Source of the DNA: Nitrososphaeria archaeon
GTDB taxonomy: Archaea > Thermoproteota > Nitrososphaeria > Geothermarchaeales > JDFR-13
Direction: 5' to 3'
NCBI GenBank assembly: GCA_027078545.1
Contig: JALWXN010000004.1
Span: 96,001-160,000, forward strand
Length of the DNA stretch: 64,000 nucleotides
Below are positions 29,993-61,610 of the stretch, one piece after another. How positions within the stretch are numbered: position 1 is the first letter of the stretch; the number at the start of each line of letters is the position of its first letter. Below the pieces are notes generated by a model, which was not told where the DNA came from, did no database searches, and saw nothing but the letters and a program-made list of their open reading frames with translations. Both the position numbers and the translations under genes were made by a program.

Positions 29993-30907
29993 CTAGAACA
30001 CGTGTCTAAATCCCTTCTCAGGAACTTTGGAGCCATCGCCTAGATATACCCTGCCCCCACCCTCTACCACCCTACCTATCCTTATCAGACCTAGCCTCTC
30101 AGCCTCTGCAGCCCCATTTCCCGATAGAAAGAATACCCCTCTATACTCCTCCCCACCATATAGCGTAGCCTCCAATACAGCTTCTCTATCCAACCTTCTC
30201 AACAGAGGATGGACCGGGAGATCTTCAATAATGATATCAACTCCAGAGGCTCTTGCCACTTGGTATAGAGATGCGGCTAGGCCGTCACTACTATCTATGG
30301 TCGCGTTAGGTCTGGTCCTCTTGACTATTGATGGATACAGATGTAGATTGGGAGAGGGATATTCAAATTGCTTCACAGCCTCGTGATACAGGCTGTGGTC
30401 TAATTCTTCAACACCATACTTCCCTAATAATATGTTGAGGCCTAGCCACGTAAGTCCAAAATAGCCGTCGACATATACATAGTCACCAGGTCTCGCACCA
30501 GATCTAACCGGGGGTTTACAACGGGAGATGGCCACGCCTCCAACCGAGACAAATGGATCCCTAGACCTATTAGTATCCCATTTTAGGCATCCCGCCAAGC
30601 CATACCTTCTAAGAGCATAGTGAATACCTGCCGATAGTTCTGAGAGCTCGTATCTAGACAGTCTACTTAGACCTAGGGATATCATGATTGTGAAGGGCTC
30701 ACCACCCTTGACCATAAGGTCACTCAGAGTAGCAACTACTGCCTTATATCCAACGGATCGCCAATCCATGAGGAGAGGCTTGTCCGTACTGGCAACGAAG
30801 GTATCAATACTCGTGAGGACATATAGGCCTCCCACCCTCTCAAACGCCACATCATCGTCTATACACCTTCCAGACATGAAGAGCTTCTTAACACTCTCCT
30901 CATCCAT
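29993..30907 (-). CDS. thiL: Thiamine-monophosphate kinase
   Basis: DDDVA, GYKAVVATLSDL..KG, DSSDGL, GGEEY, GFRH. Confidence 0.85.
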   Translation of the reverse strand: MDEESVKKLFMSGRCIDDDVAFERVGGLYVLTSIDTFVASTDKPLLMDWRSVGYKAVVATLSDLMVKGGEPFTIMISLGLSRLSRYELSELSAGIHYALRRYGLAGCLKWDTNRSRDPFVSVGGVAISRCKPPVRSGARPGDYVYVDGYFGLTWLGLNILLGKYGVEELDHSLYHEAVKQFEYPSPNLHLYPSIVKRTRPNATIDSSDGLAASLYQVARASGVDIIIEDLPVHPLLRRLDREAVLEATLYGGEEYRGVFFLSGNGAAEAERLGLIRIGRVVEGGGRVYLGDGSKVPEKGFRHVF

Positions 30908-54149: not shown

Positions 54150-55355
54150 TTAGAGAATATCCTCGATCAATGGATCTTCGGACAACGACTTCAACAATTC
54201 CTCCCTATCAACAAGAAGCCTGACAGTGCTAACCCTCCCACCTCTACGGCCATAGTTGTAGATCCTCCTACTTACAAGACCCATAACAGCCAACTCGGAG
54301 ACGAGGCTATAGAACCTCCTATAGGAGAGTGGATCCTCCCCCACCAGTTTACACAACCCGGTATATATGCTGTATAGCTTGGAAGACTGGATATTAGTTG
54401 ATCCAGCCTTGACTAGAGACACTAGGATGATCTTGCTGTGGAAGGGAAGCGTCTTGATCACCTCGGCGGTCCTCTCCACATCAATCCTCTCATAAGCCTC
54501 CCTAACATGCTCCTCAACAACTCTATGATCACCCCGTTCCTCAGCGATCTCACCAGCAACCCTGATGATGTCGAGGGCCTTCCTAGCATCCCCATGCTCG
54601 GATGCTGAGAGGGCTGCGGCCAGCTTGATACTACCGTCCTCAACAACGTTCGGCTTGAAGGCAAGCTTAACCCTCTCCCTGATAATCACCTCAAGCTCAG
54701 AAGCGGTATAGGGTTTAAACACGATCTCCTCCTCACTAAGACTGGAGAGTACCCTAGGATCCATAAGATCCTTAAACCTAAGGTCGTTGGATATCCCGAT
54801 GATCATGTAGGGAATATCGGCACCCTCATATCCAGCCCTTGTGAAGGAGTATAGAAGCTGATCACCATACCTAGTAACCAACACGTCTATCTCATCCAGC
54901 ACTATGACTATCGGAATCCTATCCTCCCTCAGCCTCAGAAGAACCCTAGAAATACCCTCCTCAACCGATAGGCCGGTGAAGGGTAGATCAACCCCAATAT
55001 CCGAAGCGATGCTAGCGACGACCCTATACTCGGTTCCGGCCATCCTACAGTTGACATATGAGATGTAGGCCGGGATACTATTCCTCTCGAGAAAGTCTCT
55101 CAGCCGGCCCAGTACATACTTAGTAACCGCGGTCTTACCCGTACCTGGCTTACCATAGATAAAGACGTTAGAGCTCTTCTCACCACGTATTATAGGGGAG
55201 ATCAGCCTACCAAGCCTAGCAATCTCCTCATCCCTAAACGGTAGGCTACTCGGAATATAGTCGTGGAACAGGACCTTCTTGTCACGGAATATCGGGCTCT
55301 CAGACACCGCCCGCTCAAAGATCTTGTCAAGAAAATCATCCGACACACCTCCCAC
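54150..55355 (-). CDS. cdc6: Orc1/Cdc6 replication initiator
   Basis: YGKPGTGKT, LDEID, DPRVLSSL, GDARKALD, C-terminal wHTH GRRGGR. Confidence 0.96.
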   Translation of the reverse strand: MGGVSDDFLDKIFERAVSESPIFRDKKVLFHDYIPSSLPFRDEEIARLGRLISPIIRGEKSSNVFIYGKPGTGKTAVTKYVLGRLRDFLERNSIPAYISYVNCRMAGTEYRVVASIASDIGVDLPFTGLSVEEGISRVLLRLREDRIPIVIVLDEIDVLVTRYGDQLLYSFTRAGYEGADIPYMIIGISNDLRFKDLMDPRVLSSLSEEEIVFKPYTASELEVIIRERVKLAFKPNVVEDGSIKLAAALSASEHGDARKALDIIRVAGEIAEERGDHRVVEEHVREAYERIDVERTAEVIKTLPFHSKIILVSLVKAGSTNIQSSKLYSIYTGLCKLVGEDPLSYRRFYSLVSELAVMGLVSRRIYNYGRRGGRVSTVRLLVDREELLKSLSEDPLIEDIL

Positions 55356-55359
55356 CTAG

Positions 55360-55660
55360 TCAATTCAAGTGTTTCAAATGTTCTTTACTCTTCTGTGACT
55401 AGTGAGCACATAGGGTTAGATACATACTATGAACATCACTCTAGAACTTCATCCGCTTTTCCTACGTTCAGTATATGAAATATCATACTGAAACAGATGA
55501 AACCAAGGGGTGGGGAGTTTCACATGTTTCGCAGCTTTTCACAGGAAAGGCCTAAACCCCTCTGTTTCAAGTGAAACCTGTGAATAGCTATCAAGATTCC
55601 TCCAGGAATGTAACCCTTTAGGAGGCTTGCCTAACACAAGCTTTATCACTTCACAGATCT
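55360..55660. other. Probable replication origin (oriC) with ORB elements
   Basis: GAAACAGATGAAACCAAGGGG (55490-55510, +) and GTTTCACTTGAAACAGAGGGGT (55556-55577, -) converge; further mini-ORBs at 55371 and 55517; non-coding and upstream of cdc6. Confidence 0.8.
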
Positions 55661-55675
55661 ACACTATATACAGTC

Positions 55676-56083
55676 ATGAAGCGAAAAGTGAAGATCGAGG
55701 TCGAGGCCGACGATGGTACGAAGATCAGGATAGAGGTTCCCAACAATGATCCTGAGAAGATATACATGTATCTCAAGGCCCTCAACATGATAACCGGTGG
55801 TAAGGATCTCCAAGAGGCCGGATCTGAAAAGGCCGGATCCAGGGAAGCCACCCTCATTGTAGACAGGGTACGCGAGATAATCCTATCTGAATTCGGTATG
55901 AGCACCTTCACCTTACATGATCTCTACAAGATTTACGAGATGAAGTATGGTGAGTCTATCCCGAAGTCGACACTATCGACATATCTATCGCGCTTTGTAG
56001 ATGATGGGTTGATAGAGAGGATCGGTAGAAGAGGGAGCTACAGGTATAGGGTAGCATCACCCGCTTTGTTCCATACCCAATAA
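55676..56083 (+). CDS. Winged-helix DNA-binding protein
   Basis: C-terminal FTLHDL...STLSTYLSRFVDDGLIERIGRRGSYRY. Confidence 0.8.
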   Translation: MKRKVKIEVEADDGTKIRIEVPNNDPEKIYMYLKALNMITGGKDLQEAGSEKAGSREATLIVDRVREIILSEFGMSTFTLHDLYKIYEMKYGESIPKSTLSTYLSRFVDDGLIERIGRRGSYRYRVASPALFHTQ

Positions 56084-56656
56084 CTCTCTTATCTCGTCAA
56101 TCCTGTCAGGGTTGACACGATATCTATAGGGCTTGGATGTCTCAATCCTAACAACGTATCCCTTACTATACAGCATCTTGAGGACACGGGAAATATGCTC
56201 CCTAGACTTTCCTAGACTTGAACTCAGCTCCGATGATGTAGCCTCACCCCTATCCATTAGGAGTGATAAGACCTCTACCTCTGCCCTGGATAGTGCTGCC
56301 GATCTCCTAGGCCTCCTCTCCATAGCCTCAGTAGGTCGCATACTACTGGGAACTGGTACTGGTTCAGGTGTAGCCTCACGAGCAGTAGATACTATGGATT
56401 CCTTGCCTTCTGATCCTACTCTCCTCTCGTTGGAAAGTTTGGCCTCTAGTAGTGAGACTCTACTCTTAACAGTCTTCAGATCCTCCCTGAGTCTGGATAT
56501 GCTTTGTTGGAGAGAATAGATCTCGGAGTAGCTAAGGCCTTCGATATGCTTCCTTGTATCTGATATTATCCTCATCATCATGATGATGACTAGTGACGTA
56601 GAGATGACAAACACTGTAAGCGCTATATCCATGAGTGATATCATGACAATATACAT
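56057..56656 (-). CDS. Membrane-anchored coiled-coil plus wHTH protein
   Basis: N-terminal TM, heptad stretch, Pro/Ser linker, LSRAEVEVL...SREHISRVLKMLYSKGYV.R....PYRY. Confidence 0.8.
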   Translation of the reverse strand: MYIVMISLMDIALTVFVISTSLVIIMMMRIISDTRKHIEGLSYSEIYSLQQSISRLREDLKTVKSRVSLLEAKLSNERRVGSEGKESIVSTAREATPEPVPVPSSMRPTEAMERRPRRSAALSRAEVEVLSLLMDRGEATSSELSSSLGKSREHISRVLKMLYSKGYVVRIETSKPYRYRVNPDRIDEIRELLGMEQSG

Positions 56657-56770
56657 TTTGTGACGTCATCATTATAAACAGTGATGCGGCTCCTCAATAC
56701 GGAAATAATAAGATGTGGACCTGGATCACTAGACCAGCAAAAAGATCCGCATGTCTATATTCTCTCGCGA

Positions 56771-57115
56771 CTATTCAAAGCTCTTCCTGAGATGCTCTCT
56801 GATGATCCTAAATAGGTGCTCAGGATCGATATCCTCATCTAAGAGTGATGTGATGCGTTGTATGATCGCTATGATGTCATCAAGTGATATCACATCACAT
56901 GCCACGAGTAGGGATAGTGTCATCATGGATTTCGTCACATTGTCGATTCCCTGATTCCTAACCCTATGGAACGTCCCTCGCTTCACCTTTTTACCGAGGA
57001 TTTGATAGGTCTTGCTTTGTCTCTGCACCGTTAGTGTGTAGAGTTGTCTCGATGTTATGCTGCTTATCCTGTCTATTTTTTTACCTAGTCGTGTAAATTT
57101 GCAGGCCTCCGACAT
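56771..57115 (-). CDS. Hypothetical protein, possible HTH with hydrophobic C-terminal helices
   Basis: SITSRQ...VKRGTFHRVRNQGIDNV pattern; start at MSEACK. Confidence 0.55.
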   Translation of the reverse strand: MSEACKFTRLGKKIDRISSITSRQLYTLTVQRQSKTYQILGKKVKRGTFHRVRNQGIDNVTKSMMTLSLLVACDVISLDDIIAIIQRITSLLDEDIDPEHLFRIIREHLRKSFE

Positions 57116-57203
57116 ATGCTTTAGCCCCCCTTCTATTGTAATACAGAATTGTCTACGGGGGAAGATTATATACATTGAGTATGGAATAATTGATTAGGTG
57201 TAG

Positions 57204-57458
57204 TTGATGGGTCGTAGAAGGAGGAAGAAGGTTGTTAAGATCTACAAACCTAAGATCCCTAAAATATTCACATGCCCAATATGCGGAGCTACCGCTCTGA
57301 ATATAACAATAGATAAGAAAAGTAGGAAAGCAGTAGCCAAATGTGCCGAGTGCGGTCTTCTATGGGAGACAGAAGTAAAGGAGTATGAGGAGAAGATAGA
57401 CATTTATCACAGGCTCTTCGACGAATACATTGATGCCGGGGGAGCTGAGGAGACGTGA
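57204..57458 (+). CDS. elf1: Transcription elongation factor Elf1
   Basis: MGRRRRK...FTCPICG...CAECG...DIY. Confidence 0.88.
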   Translation: MMGRRRRKKVVKIYKPKIPKIFTCPICGATALNITIDKKSRKAVAKCAECGLLWETEVKEYEEKIDIYHRLFDEYIDAGGAEET

Positions 57459-58246
57459 AGATTGGGCCTACTGAAAAGTATCTATGGAGTGAGATCGAGT
57501 CTAAAGGATCGATACATCTGAGCCTTCTCGACCCTGAGGAGTTTCAGGATCGTGAAAAGCTTATTGAAACGGTCTCTATAGCCGAAGAAGCAGGTACCTC
57601 TGGCTTCATGATAGGAGGCTCTACAGTCTTCGATCAGAGCCTCGTTGATCGTGTTGTCATGATGATAAAGGAGGTGACGTCACTACCCGTCATATTGTTT
57701 CCAAATGACATCACAGGATTGTCACGTCATGCAGATGCCTTGTGGTTCATGTCGTTGCTAAACAGCATCAATCCCTACTTCATAACAGGGGTTCAGATGA
57801 GGGCCGCCTTCCTTGTGAAGGCTATGGGTCTAGAGGCCATCCCAATGGCATACCTGATTGTGGGTGAGGGCAAGACGGCGGGATACATGGGATATGCCCA
57901 TAACATACCCTTAGATGAGCCTAAGATCGCGGCTGCCTATGCATTGGCCGCCAGATACATGGGGTTTAGATTCGTCTATCTCGAGGCCGGCTCGGGAGCG
58001 GGGAACAGAGTAGACACTAGGGTTATTAGGATAATCAAGAAGGCCGTCGACGAAATCGGACTCGTAGTAGGGGGAGGCATAAAAACCTATGAGGATGCCT
58101 TCGACGTAGCTAGTTCCGGTGCAGATATCGTTGTTACGGGGAATATCCTGGAGGTGGATCCCAAGAGGATCTTCGACATCGTTAGAGGGGTAAGAGAGGG
58201 TGGAAAAGAGAAGCTTAGAACCCTTCATCGAAAAGCTCAGGACTAA
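57455..58246 (+). CDS. Geranylgeranylglyceryl phosphate synthase
   Basis: LLDP, MIGGS, FMSLLNS, YLEAGSGA, VGGGI, VVTGN. Confidence 0.93.
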   Translation: MKIGPTEKYLWSEIESKGSIHLSLLDPEEFQDREKLIETVSIAEEAGTSGFMIGGSTVFDQSLVDRVVMMIKEVTSLPVILFPNDITGLSRHADALWFMSLLNSINPYFITGVQMRAAFLVKAMGLEAIPMAYLIVGEGKTAGYMGYAHNIPLDEPKIAAAYALAARYMGFRFVYLEAGSGAGNRVDTRVIRIIKKAVDEIGLVVGGGIKTYEDAFDVASSGADIVVTGNILEVDPKRIFDIVRGVREGGKEKLRTLHRKAQD

Positions 58247-61200
58247 GGATCTGGATCCAACACTTCAGAGCTATTTCCAATCCATTATAAATGAGGTTCT
58301 TAGACAATACGATCTCGCTAATAAGCTGCGATCACAGGGTTCTGACCACGTACCTCATGTGGAGACTGAGCTTATCTGGGATATGGCTGAACGTGTTGAG
58401 AAGCTTATAGGCATAGATGGGATAGCCGAGTTTATCAGGTCCAATAAGGACTTATCAAGGGAGAGACTGGCGATTAAGGCCATAGACAAGCTTATAGACG
58501 GTGAGTTCGGAGATTACGAGCTAGGTAGACTCGTGGATCTAGGTGTTAGACTTCCCCTAGCCATCCTAACCGAGGGTATGACTGTAGCCCCTCTAGACGG
58601 GATAAAGAAGGTGGTGATTAAGAGGGGGCCTTTCGGAAACTATCTCTCCATATATTACGCAGGCCCGATAAGATCAGCCGGTGGTACTGAGACCGGTCTA
58701 TCAATAGTTTTGGCGGACTATCTTAGGAGGAGGCTGGGCCTAGAGAAATATTATCCAACAAAGATGGAGATCCATCGTTTCATCGAGGAGCTAAGGCTAT
58801 ATGAGAGGAATGTAGCTAGGTTCCAGTACCACCTGACGGATGAGATGCTGTTCTACATCCTTAGCAATCTACCTGTAGAGGTTACGGGCGTACCTACTGA
58901 TAACATCGAGGTGCTTGTGTATAGGGACATCCCCTCGATAGAGACTAATAGGGTTCGTGGGGGAGCGCTCAGGGTAGTTAATGATGGGATCGGGGGTAAG
59001 GCTAAGAAGCTTCTAAAGATCATCGATGAACTGGGTCTTGAGGGCTGGGAGTGGCTGGAGGAGGTTGCTAAGGGTGTGGCTGGCCAGGGTAAGGGTGACG
59101 AGGAGGAGGACAAGGTGCTTAATGATCTCGTCATAGGTAGGCCGGTCATCTCCCTCAAGTCTAGCACACACGGCCTACGTCTAAGGCTGGGGAGACTGCC
59201 CAATACAGGGATCTCAGCCGTAGCTGTCCATCCGGCCGTCTTCTCCGTATTAAGATACTTTATAGTCCCAGGGTCTCAGCTTAAACTGAACATCCCTGGT
59301 AAGGGAGGAATAGTAGTCCCGTCAAGAATAGCAATGCCACCAATAGTTGAGCTAGATAACGGTGATGTAGTCGAGGTAGAGACGGAGGAGATTGGTGAGG
59401 AGCTCTCCCAGAGGATAAAGAGGATCCTTTTCCTAGGAGACATAATCGTCTCCTATGGAGATTTCCTGGAGAACAACCAGCCGATACCTCCGCTACACTA
59501 TACCCCTGAGTGGTGGATAGGCGAGCTGGAGGAGGCCACGGGGAGGAGATATGACACGCAACTCCCTTATCAATTATCATATGGAGAGAGTTTTGAACTC
59601 TCCGAGAGGTATGGGATTCCCCTCAACCCCTACTATGTACCCTCCTTTGAATACCTAAATGTGGATGAAACTGAGAGTCTCGTCTCCCAATTGAGCGATG
59701 GATATGTTAAGCATGGAGAGGGCGAGCTAATAGTCAGTGGCTCTAGGGAGCTATCCCACCTACTTAAAAAGGCTAGGATCCCCTTCCGACGGAAGGGTGA
59801 GCTTATCGAGATCCGGCATAGATACTCCTACATCCTACATGACTTGATAAGGGGCTATAGGAGCCAGAGGTTGTATAAGCCTAGATTCACCAATTCCTCC
59901 GACGTAGTCTCATTCTACCTAGGCGTTAGGGTTAGGTGCCTAAGAGGGACCTATGTATCGGCTAGGCTAGGTAGGCCGGAGAAAGCTAAGATGCGGAAGA
60001 TGAACCCACCGGTACACGCCCTCTTCCCCATAGGAAGCTATGGGGGTGACCAGAGGAACATCGTCAAGGCATACAAGCAGAACGAAATAGTTGTAGTCCA
60101 GCTATCCATCCTCTACTGTGAGACCTGTGGGAAGTACACATATAGGAACAGGTGTGAGACATGTGGATCCAGGACTGTCCAGGCCTACTACTGCTACAAC
60201 TGTAAAGTAGACACCCGATCCGAGAGTTGTCCCAAATGTGGGAGAGAGACGAGGCCATACAAGAACTGGTCCATCAACCTTAGAGATCTTGTCAGGGAGA
60301 TTAGGGAGAGACATGGCCTAAGGATCCCATCCAAAGTAAAGGGTGTAAAATCACTCCTAAGCGGATATCGGAGATATGAGGAGCTATCCAAGGGAGTACT
60401 GAGGGCTAAACATGGCTTATCAGTATTTAAGGACGGTACATGTAGAATAGATATCACTAACGCTCCTCTCACAAGTGTCTCTCTCAGGGACATAGGGATA
60501 GATGTGGATAAGGCAAGAGAATTGGGATACCAGGTCGACAGTATAGACGATGTTATAGACTTGATGCCTATGGACATACTGATCCCCGAGTCGATAGTCC
60601 CAGACCTCATCAACATGTGCAGTTTTATAGACGAGGAGATAGTGAAGCTGTATGGCGGTGAGCCTATCTACCGGGTGAGGGATAAGACAGACCTCATCGG
60701 CAAGTTGGTCGTCGGCCTCTCCCCACATACCTCCTCAGGAGTTATAGGCAGGATAATCGGCTTCACCAAGGCCAACGTCCTATATGCCCATCCACTCTGG
60801 CACGCTGCTAAGCGGCGTGACTGCGATGGGGATCAAGACGCAATTATGCTGCTTATGGACGTCCTACTAAACTTTAGTAGAGAGTACCTACCCTCCTCAT
60901 CTGGAGGCCGGATGGATGCCCCCCTCTTCGTCTCCGTAGTTGTACATCCGGAGGAAGTTGATACACAGGTCCATAACCTAGACGTCGTTGATAGATACCC
61001 ATTGGTCCTATACGAGAAGTCATTGGAGAACGTGTCGCCTAAGTTGCTTAGAGAATATATCGCTGTGGTTGAGGACTTCCTTGGAGAATCGAAGGCCTAT
61101 TATGGCTATGGAGCCCTGGATAGGGCGCCTATCCTATCTACAATAAAGAATGTCAACATGTATTCCAAGCTCAAGAGCATAGAGGCTAAGCTGGATAACC

Positions 61201-61610
61201 AGCTTAAAATAATGGAGAGGATCTTTGAGGGCGACGACAAGGCCCTCATCGTTGAAAACCTGCTTAAGAACCACGTGCTGAGGGATATAATGGGTAACCT
61301 GAGGAGCTTCTACCACCAGAGCTTTAAATGCTCCTCCTGCGGAGCCACATACCGTAGAACCCTGCTCAAGGGGACATGCATAAAGTGTGGCGGAAACCTT
61401 AGGCCGACAGTCCACACTAAAAGCGTGGTTAAATATCTGCCCCTCGCCAAGAAGCTGTCTAGCTATGTGAGGAGCCGCTACATCTTGTCCTATATCTCCC
61501 TTATTGACTCTATACTGGCTTCAACGTTTGAGCTGGATACACCGCTTGGTACCAGTATTTTCGACTATGTTGAGAGGGACGCTACTCAACAAGATAGAAC
61601 TGATCAGTGA
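58200..61610 (+). CDS. polC: DNA polymerase D large subunit DP2
   Basis: YAGPIRSAGGT, RLGRPEKAK, HAAKRRDCDGDQD, GGRMDAPL, Zn fingers. Confidence 0.97.
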   Translation: MEKRSLEPFIEKLRTKDLDPTLQSYFQSIINEVLRQYDLANKLRSQGSDHVPHVETELIWDMAERVEKLIGIDGIAEFIRSNKDLSRERLAIKAIDKLIDGEFGDYELGRLVDLGVRLPLAILTEGMTVAPLDGIKKVVIKRGPFGNYLSIYYAGPIRSAGGTETGLSIVLADYLRRRLGLEKYYPTKMEIHRFIEELRLYERNVARFQYHLTDEMLFYILSNLPVEVTGVPTDNIEVLVYRDIPSIETNRVRGGALRVVNDGIGGKAKKLLKIIDELGLEGWEWLEEVAKGVAGQGKGDEEEDKVLNDLVIGRPVISLKSSTHGLRLRLGRLPNTGISAVAVHPAVFSVLRYFIVPGSQLKLNIPGKGGIVVPSRIAMPPIVELDNGDVVEVETEEIGEELSQRIKRILFLGDIIVSYGDFLENNQPIPPLHYTPEWWIGELEEATGRRYDTQLPYQLSYGESFELSERYGIPLNPYYVPSFEYLNVDETESLVSQLSDGYVKHGEGELIVSGSRELSHLLKKARIPFRRKGELIEIRHRYSYILHDLIRGYRSQRLYKPRFTNSSDVVSFYLGVRVRCLRGTYVSARLGRPEKAKMRKMNPPVHALFPIGSYGGDQRNIVKAYKQNEIVVVQLSILYCETCGKYTYRNRCETCGSRTVQAYYCYNCKVDTRSESCPKCGRETRPYKNWSINLRDLVREIRERHGLRIPSKVKGVKSLLSGYRRYEELSKGVLRAKHGLSVFKDGTCRIDITNAPLTSVSLRDIGIDVDKARELGYQVDSIDDVIDLMPMDILIPESIVPDLINMCSFIDEEIVKLYGGEPIYRVRDKTDLIGKLVVGLSPHTSSGVIGRIIGFTKANVLYAHPLWHAAKRRDCDGDQDAIMLLMDVLLNFSREYLPSSSGGRMDAPLFVSVVVHPEEVDTQVHNLDVVDRYPLVLYEKSLENVSPKLLREYIAVVEDFLGESKAYYGYGALDRAPILSTIKNVNMYSKLKSIEAKLDNQLKIMERIFEGDDKALIVENLLKNHVLRDIMGNLRSFYHQSFKCSSCGATYRRTLLKGTCIKCGGNLRPTVHTKSVVKYLPLAKKLSSYVRSRYILSYISLIDSILASTFELDTPLGTSIFDYVERDATQQDRTDQ

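Follow-up and report, generated by a model that had tools for sequence, protein, structure and literature searches.

Clustered TGAYRTCA palindromes beside a probable archaeal replication origin are inherited together with the gene for a predicted membrane-anchored winged-helix protein

We analyzed a 64-kb window of the genome of a Nitrososphaeria archaeon (Geothermarchaeales; JDFR-13; contig JALWXN010000004.1, positions 96,001 to 160,000, numbered here from 1), in which six copies of the palindrome TGAYRTCA lie within 1.1 kb near the cdc6 gene. These sites are under selection at the DNA level and are co-inherited across the phylum with an adjacent single-copy gene, which encodes a winged helix-turn-helix protein with a predicted transmembrane helix (TM-wHTH). 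The array is probably the cognate site set of this membrane-anchored protein, consisting of an operator of its own gene together with auxiliary boxes; the binder, its repressive action, and DNA looping are what we infer from the evidence below. The combination of an operator array with a membrane-linked binder is new, and both elements are of known kinds.

The window contained seven copies of TGAYRTCA, six in the cluster (56636, 56661, 56872, 56885, 57675, and 57706) and one at 30232, as a sequence-only reading of this DNA had reported. The clustered copies form three pairs with centre-to-centre spacings of 25, 13, and 31 bp, and the 18-bp palindrome (56572–56589) and three near-matches (56845, 56889, and 57721) listed in the same reading were also present. 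The window total was unremarkable, with 4.4 copies expected from shuffled sequences and at least seven found in 15 of 100 shuffles; it is the clustering that stands out. Across the 1.24-Mb genome there were 51 copies, and no other 1.2-kb stretch held more than two, showing that the motif is not evenly spread. All six clustered copies had R before and Y after the core, giving the 10-bp palindrome RTGAYRTCAY, compared with 10 of the 45 others, and this longer form occurred 16 times genome-wide, including the six within the 1.1-kb cluster. Markov models of orders 0–3, trained on the 1159-bp region itself, predicted 0.09–0.71 8-mers and 0.02–0.35 10-mers in that region, with probabilities of at least six copies of 1e-4 to 6e-10 and 2e-6 to 1e-13, respectively. 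Half-sites (RTGAY or RTCAY) numbered 39 in 56527–57726 against a genome mean of 8.45 per 1.2 kb (standard deviation 3.4), and the three densest 100-bp half-site windows of the contig were those at 56569 (13 half-sites), 56835 (11), and 57627 (10), the mean being 0.70. Other half-site-dense windows of the contig (C4; ~734695, 515154, 302553, 306869, 76161, and 74521) consisted of scattered non-palindromic words and were set aside. The distance of the six copies from the start of cdc6 is 1.3–2.4 kb, and five lie within coding sequence; one perfect site is intergenic, as are several half-sites.

Codon shuffles preserving the three encoded proteins gave an expectation of 0.55–0.74 coding copies, whereas five were seen, a number reached in none of 20,000 shuffles. 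All six copies are retained in the close relative G002. Between it and the present genome (G000), the 36 core positions were identical and 2 of the 60 site positions differed, each by an R-to-R change, compared with 160 of 1141 positions outside the sites. One copy lies where members of this genus carry FPND(I/V)T in geranylgeranylglyceryl phosphate (GGGP) synthase (57701–57715), whereas the other sampled lineages have FPNN or FPGN. This copy, ATGACATCAC (site C2), exists because of an Asn-to-Asp change in the otherwise conserved FPNN motif, and two AT-rich congeners retain it through rare ATC or GTC codons (12–14% of Ile or Val codons). Half-sites in the part of the gene that surrounds it (Box C, below) were more numerous than in codon shuffles in each of the family's seven genomes (P from <2e-4 to 0.04); no such excess was seen in nine genomes from outside the family, one of which, G014, has no TM-wHTH protein. 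The codon-shuffle null and the family-wide excess uphold the earlier argument that selection acts on the DNA inside genes, GGGP synthase among them.

The sites are arranged in three boxes. Box A (56572..56690) covers the promoter and start codon of the TM-wHTH gene (56057..56644, minus strand; the longest open reading frame, ORF, begins at 56656, and homologues point to 56644) and comprises the 18-bp palindrome, sites A1 and A2, and further half-sites. The palindrome, TCATCATCATGATGATGA, consists of ATCAT/ATGAT half-sites in steps of 3 bp; it codes for V-I-I-M-M-M where the membrane helix ends and is also retained in G002. Site A1 (56635–56644, minus-strand ATGATATCAC) contains the likely start codon as its ATG, and site A2 (56660–56669, minus-strand ATGACGTCAC) lies directly downstream of a TATA-like TTTATAA (56672–56678, minus strand). 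The gene strand thus reads TTTATAA, 2 nt, ATGACGTCAC, 15 nt, and ATGATATCAC with the start ATG, the TATA box and transcription start being predicted from the sequence; both A1 and A2 are retained in G002. Box B (56845..56898) lies within the 3' third of the small gene ORF134 (56771..57115, minus strand; the longest ORF extends to 57175, and the ATG at 57115 is the probable start) and contains the near-match GTGATGTGAT (56845–56854), site B1 (ATGATGTCAT, 56871–56880), site B2 (GTGATATCAC, 56884–56893), the near-match ATCACATCAC (56889), and an extra ATCAC (56894–56898). Its outer arms form a 10-bp inverted repeat, and a pair of sites at this place is also found in G002, G004, and G006. Box C (57656..57730) lies within codons ~68–92 of the GGGP synthase gene and packs 10 half-sites into 75 bp, including site C1 (GTGACGTCAC, 57674–57683), site C2 (57705–57714), and the near-site GTCACGTCAT (57721–57730). 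Relative to the TM-wHTH gene, boxes B and C are ~240 bp and 1.0 kb further upstream than Box A, and the distances between boxes are identical in G002.

The TM-wHTH protein, the presumed binder, is 195–199 aa long with a C-terminal winged helix and matched the Pfam families TrmB (8.3e-11) and MarR (6.8e-7), both over the cut-off, while PDB profile matches were to ArsR-type regulators. Hydropathy and alignment revealed a conserved architecture of a hydrophobic helix, basic residues, a coiled coil, a variable linker, and the wHTH domain, with almost nothing outside the membrane beyond the N-terminal helix, which is likewise a conserved feature. The AlphaFold2 (AF2) model consisted of a helix (residues 4–79), a disordered linker (80–119), and the wHTH domain (120–189, pLDDT ~90). 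Five residues of the recognition helix, R148, E149, H150, R153, and K156, do not vary within the class, and neither does the half-site. No sugar (effector) domain of the TrmB family sensu stricto was found in the protein, the remainder of which consists of the transmembrane (TM) helix, coiled coil, and disordered linker. Homologues are annotated merely as 'MarR family transcriptional regulator' in Geothermarchaeota or Thermoprotei metagenome-assembled genomes (one source).

The cassette of TM-wHTH, ORF134, and a further small gene, orf135p, is conserved throughout the class. In 22 of 28 class genomes, the 3 kb beside Cdc6 held one or more perfect palindromes, with 0.03–0.09 expected, which agrees with the enrichment near the origins of relatives anticipated by the sequence-only reading. 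Within loci of 9–16 kb, boxes with at least four strict half-sites lay almost exclusively 1.2–4.1 kb from Cdc6 on the TM-wHTH side, the three exceptions being L047, with a box beside Cdc6 itself; a genome that lacks the gene, with a box at +5.1 kb; and G030, where the boxes are near the gene. A palindrome or half-site array was found at the TM-wHTH start in 23 of 23 class genomes examined, and the 150-bp window at this start ranked in the top 0–4.5% of its own locus in all 23. The most widely conserved site overlaps the stretch from the TATA box to the start codon of the TM-wHTH gene.

The sites are lost and displaced together with the gene. G014 (locus L029) has kept Cdc6 and orf135p and lost TM-wHTH and ORF134, a natural deletion in which orf135p is followed straight by Elf1, GGGP synthase, and PolD DP2, and neither palindromes nor boxes were found at this locus. 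In family f8, where Cdc6 is present and TM-wHTH absent, palindrome copies numbered 0–1. In G030, the TM-wHTH gene is 5.5 kb from Cdc6 and the boxes stay with the gene; sites also accompany the gene when it lies away from Cdc6 in families f17 and f23.

Across the phylum, a TM-wHTH profile matched 94 of 151 sampled genomes, mostly once each. Of the 44 perfect palindromes counted in 20 loci belonging to 14 other families, 37 lay within 2.5 kb upstream of the TM-wHTH homologue, corresponding to a density of 0.75 versus 0.048 per kb (binomial 3e-16, with kin not independent). At least one site accompanied each of the 13 homologues that have an N-terminal TM helix, and 10 of these had at least two, whereas three of the seven TM-less homologues (loci L068, L070–L074, and L076, all from other families) had a single site and none had more; the latter may represent a separate soluble subfamily. 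Other lineages carried up to five sites over 2.3 kb. An extra dense half-site box was present ~950 bp inside PolD DP2 in three other genera (G007, G008, and G009), with GTGATATCAC on the codons V-I-S-L (L026:11241; L028 ~5070 and 5108; also G008, locus L024), and the present genome has GTCATCTCC and no box at the matching place. Palindromes at the PolD DP2 start in family f7 correspond to an N-terminal MMS or MS peptide, may be coding-driven, and were not counted. In the Nitrosopumilaceae-like family f6 (L042–L047; complete genomes of 1.5–1.7 Mb), the perfect palindrome falls on the M-T-S codons of the wHTH gene and may likewise be coding-driven; the promoter half-site arrays of f6 are the better evidence. 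A second half-site cluster was observed in f6 ~550 bp downstream of the TM-wHTH start, in the gap between orf135p and TM-wHTH.

We took the array to be the cognate sites of TM-wHTH because the half-site and the recognition helix are both constant, because TrmB-type proteins offer a precedent, and because the sites are lost and move with the gene. In the proposed mechanism, a dimer held together by the coiled coil would read both RTGAY half-sites of each 10-bp palindrome, and the additional half-sites of each ~100-bp box would allow several dimers to bind next to one another. Archaeal auto-operators usually lie in the stretch from TATA box to start, where the bound protein represses by blocking TBP/TFB or RNA polymerase. 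Since Box A occupies the space from the TATA box to the start codon, binding there should repress the gene itself, and its occupancy would shut off TM-wHTH transcription. Boxes B and C would be auxiliary, increasing occupancy locally, and they may loop out the intervening promoter of the divergent ORF134 and Elf1-GGGP synthase-PolD DP2 genes. A parallel for such remote sites is lac O2, an auxiliary operator within lacZ that lies hundreds of bp from the main one and strengthens repression through looping. Here, too, extra operators lie far from the main one and inside a structural gene; they differ in being archaeal arrays of ~10 half-sites with a predicted membrane-anchored binder, and looping is a conjecture from their placement.

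The TrmB precedent comes from TrmBL1 of Pyrococcus furiosus and Tgr of Thermococcus kodakarensis, which bind the TGM operator TATCAC-N5-GTGATA, and TrmBL1 is listed as autoregulated (PMC4158304). Shared features are a TrmB/MarR-type winged helix, a GTGATA/TATCAC half-site, and inverted repeats around the TATA box and transcription start. In contrast to the TGM operator, the half-sites described here abut directly and are arranged the other way round (GTGAT.ATCAC); in place of a sugar-binding effector domain, the protein carries a membrane helix at its N terminus and a coiled coil; and the sites occupy a single locus, embedded in coding genes, rather than a genome-wide regulon. A search for a regulon yielded 10 further perfect RTGAYRTCAY copies genome-wide, most of them at mid-gene positions of long ORFs; two touched start codons, a number within chance expectation given that ATG is part of the motif. 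A literature search on the motif strings returned eukaryotic CRE sites and primers only, and in the literature on thaumarchaeal origins and membrane-anchored regulators we did not find the module described.

Several observations weigh against the auto-operator reading. Boxes up to 2.3 kb upstream and within coding sequence are unusual for a plain autoregulator, and it is not evident what a simple repressor would gain from a membrane anchor that bears no outside domain. The pair spacings of 25, 13, and 31 bp share no common helical phase. Relatives are not independent, and the cross-genome P values therefore overstate the case. Finally, ORF134 and TM-wHTH always occurred together in the class sample, and the phyletic pattern therefore cannot separate these two candidate binders.

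The array could instead be mainly structural, the membrane-anchored protein tethering origin-flanking DNA for positioning, segregation, or replication control, with autoregulation as a side effect; we regard this as possible and rather unlikely. The array would then be an attachment or centromere-like site, with the same binder as in our main reading and a different selected function. On the modelled architecture, a membrane-inserted TM-wHTH protein bound at the boxes would necessarily hold this DNA at the membrane. Tethering would fit the conserved N-terminal TM helix with its basic residues and almost no outside part, the multi-box arrays that lie partly in essential genes, with an extra box whose place varies by genus (GGGP synthase in this family, PolD DP2 ~+950 in G007, G008, and G009), and the lack of a regulon elsewhere in the genome. 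It would also fit the occurrence of arrays of at least two sites with TM-bearing homologues alone (10 of 13 versus 0 of 7), although the TM-less proteins may be a different subfamily, and the position of the gene next to Cdc6 and the origin recognition boxes (ORBs) in most lineages, although the sites follow the gene away from Cdc6 in G030 and in families f17 and f23. Against it, the most widely conserved site is at the promoter, the sites cover just 1–2.5 kb on one side of the origin, and there is neither a partner ATPase in the cassette nor a ParB found in the genome.

Archaeal segregation is otherwise poorly understood (PMC7617429), which we counted for tethering, as we did the precedent of RicO from Staphylococcus aureus, in which a DNA-binding domain is joined to a coiled coil and to a helix that binds the membrane, and whose specific motif is confined to the origin-proximal chromosome (bioRxiv 10.64898/2026.03.06.710092). 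By hydropathy, alignment, and the AF2 model, TM-wHTH combines the same three elements in one protein, the two being compared by architecture alone. RicO differs in being bacterial, in its reverse domain order, in attaching through an amphipathic helix instead of a TM anchor, and in its nine 18-bp sites over ~700 kb, compared with a 1–2.5-kb array beside the binder's own gene. A RicO/ricS-like tether as the selected function would lie between doubtful and tentative. We put forward, with slightly less reserve and still only tentatively, an origin-side attachment module of many Thermoproteota, ammonia oxidisers included, in which the wHTH protein, on multi-box arrays lying partly in essential genes such as those for GGGP synthase and PolD, would pin the origin flank to the membrane. 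It would act in origin positioning, segregation, or replication control in lineages with no known segregation machinery. The profile-negative families presumably include the model Sulfolobales, which, if so, could explain why the module has gone unstudied.

A related suggestion, that of the sequence-only reading, was that the cluster is more like parS than a single operator. The part denying a single operator stood, given the three boxes here and the more extended arrays of other lineages; the likeness to parS did not, in view of the promoter site, the sites that follow the gene, and the missing partners. A search of G000 (92% complete) for ParB_N (PF02195) returned nothing while control genomes were positive, and no ParA-type ATPase was encoded in the cassette, the only AAA_31 match being at C4:990490, ~840 kb away; on these grounds a parS system was ruled out. 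ParB/parS and SegAB resemble the present locus in having palindromes clustered near the origin, some in coding sequence, beside the binder gene, and differ from it in that the palindrome here is shorter and of another sequence and the predicted binder is a membrane-anchored wHTH protein. No ParA/SegA-type ATPase was found in or near the cassette, and SegB homology was not searched. The array may possibly have a centromere or tether role.

Another protein of the cassette, ORF134 or orf135p, could bind the palindromes, with the TM-wHTH gene merely a regulated target, which we consider improbable. In favor of ORF134, it is conserved, co-occurs with the sites, is lost together with them in G014, and has Box B inside its gene. 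The protein had no Pfam family, no PDB profile match, and no Foldseek match in the PDB; the family is nevertheless conserved, and the N-terminal half of its AF2 model (pLDDT 86) resembled LuxR/sigma-region-4 helix-turn-helix DNA-binding domains (Z 4–5.2), a weak structural match. The putative recognition helix of ORF134 is variable, with Q24 alone invariant, whereas the half-site is constant across the phylum. Furthermore, tblastn matched ORF134 in 1 of 20 loci of other families in which the sites persist (a single-sequence search, by which absence is not demonstrated). The orf135p protein is retained in G014, which has no sites, and this speaks against orf135p as the binder.

It is very improbable that the cluster is a by-product of local base composition or of the codons used by peptides rich in Asp, Ile, Val, Ser, Thr, and Met, or part of Orc1/Cdc6 elements: the region is AT-richer than the genome (43% versus 52% GC), several sites fall on conserved peptide motifs (VIS, DDI, NDIT, and MTS), and ORB-like elements lie within 2.4 kb, but the region-trained Markov models and codon shuffles reject the former, as do the intergenic sites and the Asn-to-Asp origin of the GGGP synthase copy, and G014 and f8 keep Cdc6 with no sites and 0–1 copies, respectively. 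For the same reason, and because no palindrome copies occurred among the ORBs (55356–55675), identity with ORB or mini-ORB elements was ruled out. UBP, a small beta-rich monomeric nucleoid protein with 329 sites genome-wide, recognizes the ucm motif between the ORBs of Sulfolobus origins (PMC12141716) and is similarly an accessory, non-initiator DNA binder with a specific motif at archaeal origins. The motif described here differs in being palindromic, confined to one locus outside the ORB region, and tied to a wHTH protein; with 16 perfect copies genome-wide, six of them at that locus, identity with UBP/ucm was also ruled out.

The gene order of the locus is PolD DP1, Cdc6/Orc1 (minus strand), a 320-bp spacer, orf135p, TM-wHTH (minus), ORF134 (minus), Elf1, GGGP synthase, and PolD DP2. 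The spacer (55356..55675), upstream of cdc6 (54150–55355, minus strand), is the probable oriC and contains three ORB-like elements of the GTTTCA-N3-GAAAC type with a G-string, GAAACAGATGAAAC (55490), GTTTCACATGTTTC (55517), and GTTTCAAGTGAAAC (55564), which were the only ORB-like matches within the window. The cumulative GC-skew trough is broad (~100–212 kb of C4) and includes cdc6 (~151 kb), which is compatible with an origin here without pinpointing it; judging from these sequence features, a replication origin at the cdc6 locus is likely. The conserved small gene orf135p (55676..56083, plus strand), putatively encoding a DNA-binding protein, lies between cdc6 and TM-wHTH, overlaps the TM-wHTH 3' end by 27 nt with its own 3' end, and adjoins Cdc6 in most class genomes and in many across the phylum; its sole domain match was a faint helix-turn-helix (AbiEi_4). 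The GGGP synthase gene (PcrB family; 57455..58246, plus strand) hosts Box C and is followed by PolD DP2 (58200–61610). The genes for orf135p and Elf1 share a 33-nt direct repeat within their coding parts (76% identical; 55754–55786 and 57390–57422), for which we have no explanation and which may be due to chance.

Chromosome organisation, segregation, and replication timing are largely unknown in TACK archaea, including the globally abundant ammonia oxidisers. The pairing of one small protein with a single 10-bp palindrome at this locus is open to testing, is conserved across the phylum beside origin and replication genes, and would link DNA recognition to the membrane. In a conserved enzyme of lipid synthesis, the DNA signal overrides codon choice and even one amino acid, which calls for caution with codon-usage models and gene phylogenies. 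If TM-wHTH is an autoregulator only, its sites would constitute a new operator family; if it acts as a tether, this would be, as far as the searched literature shows, the first such system in archaea.

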